From Thalia democratica (Eukaryota): DNA of 64,000 nucleotides. This document shows, piece by piece, positions 54,189-61,864 of this stretch (position 1 is its first letter; the number at the start of each line of letters is the position of its first letter). Where the stretch lies: the NCBI GenBank assembly GCA_965202585.1, contig OZ241834.1:22444001-22508000 (forward strand), in the 5' to 3' direction. The position numbers were made by a program, and so were the translations under genes. A model generated the notes under the pieces. The model saw nothing but the letters and a program-made list of their open reading frames with translations, was not told the origin of the DNA and did no database searches.

Positions 54189-54889
54189 CCGCCACCTGCT
54201 ATCCCCTAAATTTTAATTTTTTTTATTTTTAAAAGAAAACAGGACAGGGCCCTCCTTTCTGAAATGCCATGGATTTGTGTGGTCATTTACCCCTGAGCTA
54301 TGATAATACTAACGCAAAAAAGTGAAAAGAGAAAACTAAGCATGCAAGGGTATTATAACCCAGTAATTTACAAGTTCACAAACAAATTCACAAATACAGA
54401 AAATAGTTTACAAACCATTGTAATGGTAACGATTTAAAAATGGGTAGAGTTTAATGTAAAGGTAGCGTCAACTTACATCAATGGTTGGTATAAAGAATCT
54501 TTAAATTTAAACTAAGGTAAAGTTTGCAGAATCTAACAAAACATAACAGCTAGACAACATTATCTGAAAAACGTTCCAAACTTTTTAAGAAACCCTTAAA
54601 TCAAGTTTTAAATATCTAATAACAAAATTCTAAAACACACATGAGTGGTACAATTTACAATAGTACAATATCATCGATTAATTCGAAAATCTTAATCTGT
54701 AAAGAATATAAATACTGATATAGAATATACACAAGTAGAATTACTTTGAAAAATTCTGTTAGATGTTAAATTTTAGAAATTGTAAATCTCTTAAAACATG
54801 GACATTACGACAATTAACAAGGAAAACGCACATTTTTTGTTTTTGAAAAAAAATCAAATTTGTTAAAGGCACTATACTTTAGAGTGAAG

Positions 54890-55335
54890 TGATTAGTGCT
54901 AACAACATTTATTTATTCTTAATTGTTTATAAGACATTAGAAAATTTATCTAAAAAGTTAAATCACTAATACATTAAAATGAAGTGATTAATACTAACAA
55001 CATTTACTTTTTTGAATTGTTTATAGCTTCAGAAAAATTTATCTAAAAGGTTTAAGCACTAATACATTAAAGTGAAATGATTAATACTAACAAAATTTAT
55101 TTTTTTTAATTGTCTATTCTCAGAAAAATTTATCTAAAAGTTTAAGCGCTAATACATTAAAGTGAAATGATTAATACTAACAAAATTTATTTTTTTTTAA
55201 TTGTCTATATCCAGAAAAATTTATCTAAAAGTTTAAGCACTAATACATTAAAGTGAAATGATTAACACTAACAATATTTACTTTTTTTTAAAAAATGTGT
55301 ATAGCTTCAGAAAAATTTCTCTAAAAAATTTTATA
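54890..55335. repeat. ~90-93-bp AT-rich tandem repeat x5
   Basis: Unit starts at 54891, 54986, 55079, 55169 and 55260. Confidence 0.85.
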
Positions 55336-55418
55336 AAACGTAGTGCTATAAGGAATAAAGAGTTAATCAAAAAAACAAAAAAATTGCGCTTTATTCGCGT
55401 GCGTTTAATTGTCAATTG

Positions 55419-56651
55419 TTAATGTCTTTTTCTTCTTTTCTGTATGACTTCTCGCTGGTCCGCTGCTCCGCTGCCGTTGCTCCGCTGGTTACCGCCGCCC
55501 AACTGGATGCCGCTGGTCCGCTGCTCCGCTGCCGCTGCTCCACTGGTCACCTGCTCCGCTGCTCCGCTGGTTACCGCCGCTCCACTGGTCCACTGGTCCG
55601 CTGCTCCGCTGTTTCGCTGGGTGCCTCGGTTTGACCTCTTCAGTTTGTTCTTCCACCAGTCTTTCCTCTTACTGCGACTGGTGGATTGTTGATTAGCAAC
55701 TGTGTAGGCACCTGCGTTGGCGACTGTGTTGTCATTCTCCTTTAACGAGGTAATTTCAGCAAAGATCTCCATACGCCCGATGTGTAGGGTTCGGACGTCG
55801 CTCTGAAGAGCGACAATTTGTTGTTGTTGCTTACGCAATTCTTCTTTCAACTCGGTTTCCTTGTGGTCAAGGTTAGATTTGGTCTTGAAATACATCGCCT
55901 CCTTGTTTGCCAGCTTAAGCTGGGCGCGGAGGCTATGTATTTCGTTGGTCTCCCTTTGCAACAGTCTTTTAGTCACTTCTAATTCTGTTTGCAGTTTAAT
56001 GAACTCTTGGTAACTACGCGAAGGGTAACAGACACAGGTTTTCTGATTGCTATCGTCACGGGTTTCTTTCAATCTCGTGGACGGCAATTCGTCGTCCGGA
56101 ATTGGAGCGTACGCTGAAGGCGATGCTTCGACGCATCCCGATCTTATGTTAGGCGAAATTTTGTCTGGGACTTGAGTGTGTGCTGAAAGCGGTGTTTTAG
56201 CGGTGGAGATTTGTCGTCCATCCGCCTTTGTTGTTATTCTAAGATTTGTTTTGTTTTCGTCGTTCTGGAGGGGGGTCTGTCTGATCTCTTTGCTACCCGT
56301 AGCGTTCTTCATAACTCGGGTTGCATTGCTTTTGGAATCCTCTTCTGAGTCGGAGTCAATAACTATACAACTCCCCCCTTTGAAATTTTTGTGGTCGTTG
56401 CCAGGGTTTCTTTTTTGTCTTGTGTCGGCTCGTACACTATCGCGTTGTTTTTTTTCTACGCTATGTGATGGATTAGGGCCCGTTGAGTGTTTCCCTTCGT
56501 TACGATTAGTATCACCGGGAAACTCTAAAGTTTTTTTGGATTTTGGTTCGACGTCATGAATTGAACCTCTCATTAAGGATTCATCGTCGCTGCCAAATAA
56601 AGACAGTCTGTCCTCGGCGTACTCGTGATTTTCGGGTTGATTTTCATCCAT
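55419..56651 (-). CDS. Accessory ORF Y, variant 1 (410 aa), function unknown
   Basis: Intact ORF between env and the LTR; heptad region YQEFIKLQTELE..EITSLKE; C-terminal GAAAAEQRTSG repeats; basic tail. Confidence 0.8.
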   Translation of the reverse strand: MDENQPENHEYAEDRLSLFGSDDESLMRGSIHDVEPKSKKTLEFPGDTNRNEGKHSTGPNPSHSVEKKQRDSVRADTRQKRNPGNDHKNFKGGSCIVIDSDSEEDSKSNATRVMKNATGSKEIRQTPLQNDENKTNLRITTKADGRQISTAKTPLSAHTQVPDKISPNIRSGCVEASPSAYAPIPDDELPSTRLKETRDDSNQKTCVCYPSRSYQEFIKLQTELEVTKRLLQRETNEIHSLRAQLKLANKEAMYFKTKSNLDHKETELKEELRKQQQQIVALQSDVRTLHIGRMEIFAEITSLKENDNTVANAGAYTVANQQSTSRSKRKDWWKNKLKRSNRGTQRNSGAADQWTSGAAVTSGAAEQVTSGAAAAEQRTSGIQLGGGNQRSNGSGAADQREVIQKRRKRH

Positions 56652-59449: not shown

Positions 59450-59842
59450 TTAAATGGCATTGTCTTCTATCACGTCAGGGGAATTCCCTGACGTAAGGCT
59501 TGCTGCACCGTCGTTACCCAGTGTCTGGGTTGAACATTTATGTTTTACTTGGACACGTTCGACTTTTTCGCGGCTCACGTCGTCCATGTCCAGAACAAAA
59601 TTAATTTGGTTTCCCAGAGAATTGTTCATTACTCTGAGAACCGAAAGTTTTGTTCTTTCCTCAGCAGTTAGAGGGGTTAGATGCAAGGCCTGAAAGGCTG
59701 CTTGCCACCCTCTGATGGCGTCTGACAGCCATGCAATGGCGTCGGACAGCATCACTGCCCAGTTGACGGGTTCTCCTTCGCCATTAGGCGAACCGGAGTC
59801 ACCGCTCAATCTGGATTGAGGTGAGTTAGTTGCTTCCACCAT
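59450..59842 (-). CDS. Accessory ORF X (130 aa), function unknown
   Basis: ATG at 59842 follows an A-run; a GC-rich island (~50%) in AT-rich spacer; amphipathic VNWAVMLSDAIAWLSDAIRGWQAAF. Confidence 0.65.
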   Translation of the reverse strand: MVEATNSPQSRLSGDSGSPNGEGEPVNWAVMLSDAIAWLSDAIRGWQAAFQALHLTPLTAEERTKLSVLRVMNNSLGNQINFVLDMDDVSREKVERVQVKHKCSTQTLGNDGAASLTSGNSPDVIEDNAI

Positions 59843-60206
59843 TTTTTTTAAAAAAACAAACAAGAGTCTACAATGTCTCAACTTTGAGAATGAATTCTAA
59901 AGAAAGTTAACGAAAAGTTAAGGATATTTTGAACAAACTTAAAAATGTAGACTTATACCAGAATTTTTTAAAAAAAACAAACAAGAGTCTACGATGTCTC
60001 AACTTTGAGAATGAATTCTAAAGAAAGTTAACGAAAAGTTAAGGATATTTTGAACAAACTTAAAAATGTAGACTTATACCAGAATTTTTTTTAAAAAAAA
60101 CAAACAAGAGTCTACAATGTCTCAAATTTGAGAATGAATTCTAAAGAAAGTTAACGAAAAGTTAAGGATATTTTGAACAAACTTAAAAATGTTGACTTAT
60201 ACCAAA
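59843..60206. repeat. ~122-bp tandem repeat x3 directly upstream of ORF X
   Basis: caagagtcta recurs at 59861, 59982 and 60105. Confidence 0.9.
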
Positions 60207-61864
60207 ATCAACGTGCTACCGCTATCACTGCTATTACTGAATGGATTTTAAAAAGTGAAATGCATTCATCGCTTGCGAAAGAAAAAAAAATTTACAAGTG
60301 AGTGCACAAGAGAATAACGACTAAATGAACTCCCATTGCGTCTTGTTTTCAAGCAGTATCAACAACTTGGCGCTTTGAGCAATAAAGATGAATCAAAAAA
60401 AATTTACTCGAAAGAAATTAAAGGGCCAAAAGTTGAACTTAGTAAAAACTTTTGAAGAAACCTAAACCACTAATTTAATTATCGAAAAAGAAAACGAGTA
60501 AGTTTGGTAGTCACTAAACTTTTGACCTGTTTTGTAAACATGAAGAAGGTCAGTGAAATTGATGCTTCTCGTTGAGTTATTAGTTTATGCTAAGGTTCAA
60601 TAGTTTGTAGTTAATTTCATTTGTACTTAAATTTCTTTGCATAATTATGCGATCCACCTTACATAGTTACAGTTAAATGCACTTTTAACGTTGTACGCCA
60701 TTCAATTAATGTTTAGTTGTTATTCATTACTAGAACTTTTAAGCACTGGTTTGTTTATGAACATCGACAACTATTATTTTTACTATTTGCTAAATTCGTT
60801 ATCGTTAGCAACGTGTTCGGTAATTAACTAATGATGATTAGTTTCGAAGCTTTCACTAATGTGATTCTAATGTTTTATTTTACTAGTCTGTAACTTCATT
60901 TCAATCGTTAAAGTTATTTTTGGTTGTTTCGATGTTTTCGCAACAAACAAAAAACAATTGAAATAATGAAACGAACTTTACGACTTCCCACGAATTTAAG
61001 CATCCATTACTAGACTTCAGCGTTTCAAAATAACTGCAGCTGTATTTTACGTTTTTTAATGGCGTTGAAAAGTTATATTTTTTTATCAATTATTCTGGTT
61101 TAAAAGTTTGGAATGTTTCAACTTTTTACTCCCTTTAAAATATTTTATAGTTGTGGTTGCAAAAGAAATTTACAAACACTGAATTTTTCGAAGTAAAAAC
61201 GGAAAGTTTCGATTCAAGTTTATAAGTGGCAATAATTTACAACGCAATGTTTCGTTTGAATTTCGATAACATTTTCACACAGAAGCATTTCAAAAACAAC
61301 GTTCGAGTTTTTAGTTTGTAATTCAGTAGTTGTTATTGTAATGCATTTGCTGCGAAATGAAATTTGTTTTAAGTAACGTAACTAAATCTAGTAGTTAAAC
61401 AAATTTCGTTTTGTCGTTTTTACGGTTTAACCGAAATCGGCTAAAACTCGAAACTGTTTTATATTACTTAAGAAAACATTTGAGTTTTAAATAACCGTGT
61501 TTGCCATTGAAAGATGTCAAAAGACGTAAAAATGTTTGCAAATGAAAAGAAAAAACTTGTGCCTTCGTTTTCATATGCCCGTTAGCTTCGATTTGGTAAA
61601 GTTATACAATATGCAACTTCAGTTTGGTTAGAAGTATCATATATTATAACGAAGAATCGTAATCGTAGATGTCAGAGAATTTAACGTTTTATGCCACGTA
61701 AATTTTGACTAAAATATGGTTTTAATAATGGAAAAAATTTTTGCAAATTTTTAACTATAGAAATCGTTGGAATTAAGGTTTTTTTGAAGTTTATTTAGAG
61801 AATCAGTCGCATAATGAAAAGTCGTTGATTTAATGCGACGGTTATTCGTTTCTTCAATTATAAG

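Follow-up and report, generated by a model that had tools for sequence, protein, structure and literature searches.

Introduction

Gypsy elements that carry an envelope gene (env) have so far been described across animals as three-gene genomes. The closest described systems, the 'ancient errantiviruses' (Chary and Hayashi, PMC13524379), are portrayed in the main text of that study with the Ty3/gypsy order of pol domains, the succession gag-pol-env, long terminal repeats (LTRs) and a tRNA primer site. They also have a class III env that resembles herpes glycoprotein B (gB), with a leader, a C-terminal anchor and no furin site, and they occur as multiple young copies in an animal genome. Extra open reading frames (ORFs) in LTR elements are known from plants (PMC7264820, PMC11963269) and rotifers (PMC5408684), as far as the available parts of these reports go.

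Here we describe an element on the minus strand of a 64,000-nucleotide window, the whole stretch of Thalia democratica DNA that was analysed (C10:22444001-22508000; GenBank assembly GCA_965202585.1, contig OZ241834.1; coordinates without a locus label are window positions). These features of the ancient errantiviruses are shared by the element and its family. The window family is set apart from the ancient errantiviruses, by the published descriptions rather than by sequences, in that two further ORFs, X and Y, very probably selected genes of no known family, flank the class III env. We consider the best explanation, at a probability of roughly 0.6, to be a Ty3/gypsy element in which X, env and Y are under purifying selection and X and Y likely act together with the gB-like env as one module.

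The insertion and its genes

The initial annotation of the window had placed three co-oriented ORFs, each with its own spacer, between pol and an LTR. Every coordinate and length of this layout proved correct, with all features on the minus strand. The post-pol cargo comprises 7676 nt between the pol stop (61865) and the start of the LTR (TGT, 54188, -). Spacers of 2022, 746 and 345 nt separate pol from X, X from env and env from Y, and an untranslated region (UTR) of 1230 nt lies between Y and the LTR. This 3' UTR (54189..55418, -) holds 4.9 copies of a 91-bp unit, has a purine tract at its end and is also present in copies without the X-env-Y cassette. The window contains the 3' part of pol (61865..64000, -), which encodes the end of the reverse transcriptase (RT), RNase H and an integrase with a GPY motif (Pfam RT_RNaseH, Integrase_H2C2 and rve). 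Protease, RT and gag follow in the upstream extension of this copy (L001); the 5' LTR, which like gag had been expected to the right of the window, is present there twice. Pfam analysis of the pol of copy L003, 99% identical to the window pol, gives the order protease-RT-RNase H-integrase. Since this order defines Ty3/gypsy, the element is, by its domain architecture, a Ty3/gypsy LTR retrotransposon. An LTR pair, a target-site duplication (TSD), a primer site and a purine tract are all present.

The true end of the element is a full 3' LTR of 1193 bp (48778..49970, -), identical to the outermost 5' LTR at 1193 of 1193 bases and with the ends TGT...ATA instead of TG...CA. It is followed by a 4-bp TSD, ACTT (48774..48777, -), whose second copy precedes the outermost 5' LTR in L001. 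Between the full 3' LTR and the cargo lie a cut LTR (53372..54188, -), which matches positions 1-848 of 1193 with 94% identity to the outer LTR, and a partial duplicate (49971..53361, -) composed of the 3' part of env (53361-52726), an open Y' of 428 aa (52383-51097) and UTR'. The duplicate resembles copy L002 more closely than it does the element's first part and has a short shared sequence at its junction; judged by its sequence, it is derived from a related subfamily. The identical outer LTRs, together with ACTT on both sides, indicate that a recombinant template was inserted here once and very recently. The possibility, raised with the initial annotation, that X and Y are nested insertions with TSDs of their own is ruled out for X, env and Y, since the whole unit lies within one ACTT TSD and no internal TSD-bounded piece was seen.

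The env gene (56997..58703, -; 568 aa) encodes a hydrophobic N-terminal leader (by eye), a cysteine-rich ectodomain, a C-terminal membrane anchor (approximately residues 542-560) and a tail of about 10 residues, with six N-glycan sequons and no furin site; conserved cysteines are seen in the alignment of the env family. On its own, the env protein of the window matches neither Pfam nor PDB sequences. Among the 18 members of the family alignment, however, eight match Pfam Glycoprotein_B and eight the rhabdovirus fusion domain (E up to 1), and the env profile retrieves pseudorabies gB from the PDB (E = 1.9e-5). Foldseek with the env model (predicted local distance difference test score, pLDDT, 73.8; predicted template modelling score, pTM, 0.40) has herpes gB in all 32 matches listed (best E = 9e-20, template modelling score 0.36-0.43). 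Atlas features put env nearest to rhabdovirus/Monjiviricetes glycoproteins (0.97, low recognition). From the modelled fold, env is very probably a class III, herpes gB-like fusogen. It is of the herpes simplex virus/gB type of the ancient errantiviruses, a kind already published (PMC13524379, as described in its main text). The genome holds at least 78 env matches (77 of 254 candidates scored) in at least nine families; none of the 63 pattern matches from a metagenome scan for loci around env was confirmed.

ORF Y (55419..56651, -; 410 aa) has an acidic, Ser-rich N-terminus, a coiled-coil core, a low-complexity repeat and a basic tail. The conserved core spans approximately residues 180-345, with a basic WW motif at its end. 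A core profile run against 1.84 billion proteins gave four matches, two of which are true homologues; P0076 and P0077 were dropped as repeat-protein matches. Both homologues are intact (401-444 aa; 56% and 37% identity) and keep the core and the WW motif, around which their disordered parts diverge fast. In one of them, P0075, the Cys-x-Cys of Y is not kept and the basic tail is weak; in copy L002 the basic tail is out of frame. A word-based protein search with Y, restricted to lengths of 225-718, found none among 7991 candidates at E up to 0.1.

ORF X (59450..59842, -) encodes 130 aa and is a 5'-truncated form of a 240-aa gene, so that the supposed intactness of all three ORFs fails at X. The full-length form is represented by an open 240-aa copy in L021 and by a 240-aa homologue in a public assembly (ENA protein P0073). 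Upstream of X the window has three 121-bp tandem units (59843..60208, -). In L004 and L021 this unit is single and is followed by a leader of 210 nt and by codons 1-110 of X, all of which are gone from the window and L002. X appears to be a soluble protein with a predicted helical core (low-confidence model, mean pLDDT 43). Neither X, Y nor the ORFs of sister families match Pfam at curated cut-offs, an Atlas search with X gave no usable match, and no viral match for X or Y appeared in the searches made. All five X matches in the genome lie inside element copies. A host origin of X or Y was considered and rejected, no match outside element copies being found among the matches opened.

Selection on X and Y

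We compared X and Y between copies by omega (dN/dS, nonsynonymous over synonymous change), using pairwise, transition-corrected Nei-Gojobori counts. As proposed with the initial annotation, this was done for both genes, and both lie below 1, as under purifying selection. For X, three comparisons give 0.33 (0.11-0.97), 0.46 (0.25-0.89) and 0.28 (0.08-0.69). For Y, omega is 0.50 (0.34-0.78) against L004, and 0.62 (0.38-1.05) and 0.61 (0.40-0.99) in two further pairs. The same measure is 0.51 for gag, 0.20 for pol and 0.17 for env, while pseudo-frames in the spacers range from 0.66 to 1.39 with intervals spanning 1. No omega above 1 was obtained for X or Y within their own family. Moreover, differences are in excess at third positions in Y (56/117, p = 0.0008) and, in two of three comparisons, in X (20/39, p = 0.016; 11/17, p = 0.008; 8/17, p = 0.17). 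Finally, the spacers have 29 frameshifting indels in 3333 nt, a rate inflated by A+T runs, from which nine would be expected in Y codons 1-345, where none is observed. These patterns make it highly likely that X and Y are real, selected genes of the element, and they point to weak purifying selection.

Copies with and without the cassette

Protein, LTR and cargo searches, in which only the best candidates were scored, yielded 13 copies of the window family. Three carry X-env-Y, one lacks env but retains X and a broken end of Y, six carry a histone H2B sequence and three are deleted down to the Y tail. Absence of X and Y from other family members had been named with the initial annotation as a point against its reading. 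It is borne out in part, in nine of the 13 copies, all of which also lack env and most of Y; in both other env-bearing copies, in contrast, X and Y recur. No copy has a whole Y without env. In the four cassette-less copies checked, the LTR pairs are 97.6-99.2% identical and flanked by 4-bp TSDs of their own, which indicates that cassette-less copies transposed without the cassette in cis. The junctions of env-less and empty copies are, by eye, unlike splice products. More distant LTR matches (73-78% identity, nine in L056-L065) have no internal genes in the stretches taken and are outside the count of 13.

One part of the pol-X spacer is retained throughout. All 10 copies tested have this core (60444..61599, -), with 85-99.6% identity, and L021 has part of it; it survives even in copies that lack the cassette or most of pol. 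Its folding z-score is weak (-2.15, 20 shuffles). Because it is retained even where most of pol is lost, the core is likely a cis element, serving packaging, export or as a promoter.

In six copies an H2B coding sequence, from start codon to stop, stands in place of X-env-Y (L049, C5:52.12 Mb; L051, C8:49.11; L052, C7:9.79; L053, C1:62.42 Mb; L069, C10:15.75; L071, C2:34.47). In five of the six it is 97-98% identical to host H2B genes. The final codons of the captured H2B depart from those of the host. About 10 bases before the ATG are shared with the spacer, a stretch at the end is shared with the end of Y, and the histone stem-loop is absent. LTR-mediated retrocopies arise by template switches at microsimilarities (PMC5131818, in the part available), and two template switches onto a co-packaged host mRNA would fit the H2B swap. 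The H2B frame is open in three copies, frameshifted in two and fused to the Y tail in one; one of the six loci has open gag and pol. Among the three intact copies omega is 0.66-1.33, with 3-5 differences each, and is uninformative. A low omega against the host gene was discarded as a sign of selection, since it reflects divergence among host paralogues only. Because three of six frames are broken and no selection is demonstrable, H2B is probably a passenger. No pertinent published account of an LTR element with a captured histone was found in a literature search.

Sister families

In the env tree the window family groups with family F50 and six public proteins (support 88/99, unstarred). F50 has ORFs of 107 aa and of 692-734 aa, the latter a coiled coil, in the slots of X and Y; their homology to X and Y is not significant (z = -0.1 and 0.4). 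Families F44 and F40 have homologous ORFs of 80 and 84 aa after env (25% identity, z = 5.5; L010:6367-6609; L012 element position 6613-6867; L037 and L038). These have an Arg/Ser-rich start, a hydrophobic end (a C-terminal helix in F40) and a TATA-like box upstream. A decayed older family, L013, contains an X-like sequence (41% identity, z = 16.7), env and a Y-like piece in that order, and the Y-like piece scores z = 8.1 against the Y of L023. As far as these sequences tell, the slots flanking env are a lineage habit whose content changes.

Core genes and clade

The end of gag overlaps the heptamer GGGAAAC, which is likely the frameshift site, pol being in the -1 frame. The gag of the window copy stops prematurely after 464 codons; L003 has a frame break in gag and L005 one in pol, so that gag, pol and env are never all open in one of the three env-bearing copies. 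The gag ATG (49027) and 83 gag codons lie within the 1193-bp LTR. The same holds for the gag start and 38-83 codons in seven of seven families (window, L007, L011, L013, L015, L017 and L019), which places the primer site in gag coding sequence. We take this to be the layout of yeast Ty1; a literature search found no published account of it for gypsy. In L001 and L003, pol starts with about 450 residues of acidic tandem repeats before the protease. Non-autonomous copies retain gag and this leader, with protease to integrase gone.

Sequence complementary to the 3' end of a host tRNA-Asn forms the primer site. The 15-base primer pattern occurs 146 times in the genome, with tRNA-Asn genes at three of four loci opened. 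After LTR ends, the 18 terminal bases of tRNA-Asn are repeated at L001:7320-7433, between the two 5' LTRs, and at L004:2890-2930 and 9330-9360, the L004 copy having its X broken by such a piece. These pieces exceed the genomic primer site of 9-10 bases and are traces of misdirected plus-strand transfer.

The initial annotation had likened the integrase wording to CsRn1/Kabuki. The words HMDLVGP and ERQH are indeed present, and the family has a 4-bp TSD and a GPY integrase motif. Membership in the CsRn1 clade nevertheless fails on the two marks that define it in the available part of its description (PMC2582038), priming by tRNA-Trp and the CHCC gag motif: the 658-aa gag of L005 has no CX2HX9CX3C. 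Two of seven gags scanned (F50 and F30) have the variant CX2HX9CX4C, and F30 has a tRNA-Trp-like primer site, by comparison with a published Trp entry. Because sister families have these CHCC-like motifs and one Trp-like primer site, kinship with the CsRn1 clade is plausible at the sequence level. The pol tree of six in-genome families is largely unresolved.

Expression and proposed mechanism

A TATA-like box after a CT-rich tract (58767..58773, -), 70 nt upstream of the env ATG, is a candidate internal promoter. This combination is found 39-74 nt before env in six of nine env families, compared with a background of 7% for 60 nt of spacer sequence. At 56685..56696 (-), 33 nt upstream of the Y ATG, a pyrimidine tract together with CAG is a candidate splice acceptor. 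In three of four families the pattern finds such a tract 20-33 nt before the post-env ORF, at a background of 1.5% for 60 nt; the fourth family has it by eye, and it is retained in seven of seven diverged F50 copies. Six of seven family LTRs have a hexamer resembling a splice donor 12-104 nt ahead of an AATAAA-type signal, a count uncorrected for chance (LTR position 469, window 49502). Four sequence runs (contigs, kind unrecorded), in which the spacers are covered too, show no joint with GT-AG ends at the predicted sites and count neither for nor against expression; a contig from sample S2 covers the env end and most of Y. From these motifs, separate subgenomic RNAs for the post-pol genes appear rather probable, and the candidate Y acceptor may be used in trans-splicing.

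We propose that unspliced RNA would serve for gag and pol, with a shift to the -1 frame at GGGAAAC, that a separate TATA promoter within the spacer would drive env, and that the message for Y would be joined by splicing to the acceptor ahead of the Y ATG. Y would oligomerise by its coiled coil, its basic WW patch tying the particle to env-bearing membranes, and X would be a soluble helper. X-env-Y would thus form one dispensable module for cell exit and entry. Copies without it would spread within cells, with or without help in trans, and the RT would exchange the module for a co-packaged host mRNA, such as that of H2B, by two template switches.

Alternative explanations

The envelope module is favoured because X, env and Y are lost together, gag has no obvious membrane signal (by eye) and the env tail has only about 10 residues. 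One sister slot protein, moreover, combines a basic region with a membrane helix. Several observations weigh on the other side. Y has no membrane anchor, and its basic tail fits a nuclear protein better. X is truncated in two of the three env-bearing copies and interrupted in the third. Neither X nor Y gave a homologue with a known function in the searches (Pfam; Atlas for X). Families F39, F31, F30 and F29 have no ORF of at least 90 aa after env, which implies that env needs no such partner. The Y-like piece of L013 is not significant against Y alone (z = 1.9), and the F50 post-env ORF has an omega of 0.7-1.2 (copies L035, L036, L039 and L040 excluded). Selection on Y is weak, the interval against the window duplicate (omega 0.62) including 1, and the pairwise tests share copies and are hence not independent. 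Finally, expression of the post-pol genes is deduced from motifs, and a TATA-like box also lies 55 nt upstream of Y. For Y in particular, we hold a role in the envelope module to be tentative, at somewhat under even odds.

Y could instead be a Rev- or CERV-like nuclear regulator that is made from spliced RNA, multimerises on the post-pol spacer and exports unspliced RNA, with cassette-less copies borrowing it in trans. We regard this as unlikely, although it has a direct gypsy precedent (PMC10309623, in the part available) and agrees with the basic tail of Y and the conserved spacer. That tail is weak in P0075, which also lacks the Cys-x-Cys, and in L002 a frame shift removes it from the reading frame. 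A link to CERV by sequence was not seen (none tested), and Y is lost exactly when env is lost.

It is improbable that X and/or Y are fast-evolving conflict genes directed against host silencing (PIWI-interacting RNAs, chromatin) or innate defence. The fast divergence of disordered parts around a conserved core would suit such genes, as would the occupation of these slots by unrelated proteins in sister families and the capture and spread of a histone gene at that place. However, no omega exceeds 1 within the family, cassette-less copies outnumber full ones by 9 to 3, and the H2B cargo is broken in three of six copies and has no purifying signal among the three intact ones.

It is very improbable that X and Y are passengers of host or viral origin whose frames are still open since the copies are young. 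In favour, the element demonstrably captures RNAs (that of H2B); both X and Y are dispensable in cis, and X is often damaged. Yet no host parent was found, the five X matches and the opened Y matches all lie inside element copies, and there are the third-position excess, the conservation of frame and open homologues at 37% identity. For Y this reading is already largely refuted.

Hardly credible is the capture of an entire block of a negative-strand RNA virus, such as its matrix, glycoprotein and phosphoprotein-like genes together with the regions between them, as suggested by the Atlas placement of env and by the disorder and coiled coil of Y, which we take to resemble viral P proteins, because env occurs in at least nine families, most without X or Y, the structure search favours gB, X is predicted to be all-helical, neither X nor Y has a viral match, and the env tree suggests that both were gained later than env.

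Other features of the window

Two 52-bp tandem arrays (21688-22311 and 24234-24821), inverted to each other and 2 kb apart, are possibly the ends of a foldback-type element. By eye from translations, we take positions 800-3700, 13175-14160 and 32180-42220 to hold exons of phosphoribosylformylglycinamidine synthase, a glycosyltransferase and leucyl-tRNA synthetase, and 5938-8916 and 43791-44358 to be an endonuclease-RT long interspersed nuclear element and a GIY-YIG-like fragment, respectively.

Comparison with known systems

The comparisons that follow draw on parts of the cited accounts. The survey of ancient errantiviruses, a set of 1512 elements, used filters of a 1000-nt pol-env gap (first pass) and an LTR distance of up to 14 kb (PMC13524379). 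In the window family the gap is 3.2 kb and the LTR distance about 15 kb, and in none of the three env-bearing copies are gag, pol and env intact together, as the working definition of such elements asks. Surveys may thus under-count elements with long pol-env gaps. The words 'accessory' and 'splic' are absent from its main text, and tRNA-Asn priming appears in three element rows of its table. A literature search, with subscription papers mostly outside it, found no invertebrate gypsy element with env and two flanking selected genes; the bait sequences of PMC13524379 may include relatives. Accordingly, the suggestion that this is a new family stands insofar as the searches run gave no named match, whereas gypsy elements with a gB-like env were already published there. 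The idea of a complex genome is supported in that X, env and Y belong to one insertion, are shared by other copies and related families and are under selection, an accessory function of X and Y being putative; intactness of all three ORFs and CsRn1 membership are not supported.

In Cer1 of Caenorhabditis elegans, CERV is found in place of env (PMC10309623), whereas the window family has an env with a further gene on either side. In Tor3b and Tor4b of Oikopleura an internal promoter drives env, that of Tor4b lying in the post-pol intergenic space; they offer a model for the X-env spacer (PMC4402516). The Tor promoter was demonstrated by 5' rapid amplification of cDNA ends, that of the window family by motif only. 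The Tor env is furin-cleaved, in contrast to the window env, and no extra ORFs were found in the Tor description. With the CsRn1 clade (PwRn1, AgCR; PMC2582038) the window family shares the 4-bp TSD, the GPY motif and the -1 overlap of gag and pol; unlike that clade, it has a tRNA-Asn primer, no CHCC motif, and a gB-like env with two more genes.

A broader reading, which we regard as doubtful, is that an invertebrate gypsy lineage independently evolved a genome like that of complex retroviruses, with a class III env between two accessory genes expressed from subgenomic RNAs of their own, one of which would encode a coiled-coil regulator that works through a conserved RNA element, and with an exchangeable expression slot able to take up and spread entire host genes, H2B for example. 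One genome here offers natural variants with the full cassette, without env, empty or histone-loaded. They make it possible to test multi-gene expression after pol, the helpers of a gB-like env and the role of the conserved post-pol spacer.

Variable extra ORFs after pol, as in the window family and its sisters, are also seen in the ORF3 capture of bdelloids (PMC5408684). The H2B cargo resembles LTR-mediated retrocopies, in which host mRNA is copied in with short shared sequence at both junctions (Tan et al., PMC5131818). It differs in that a start-to-stop coding sequence replaced a three-gene cassette and spread to six loci, a snapshot of gene gain by such slots.

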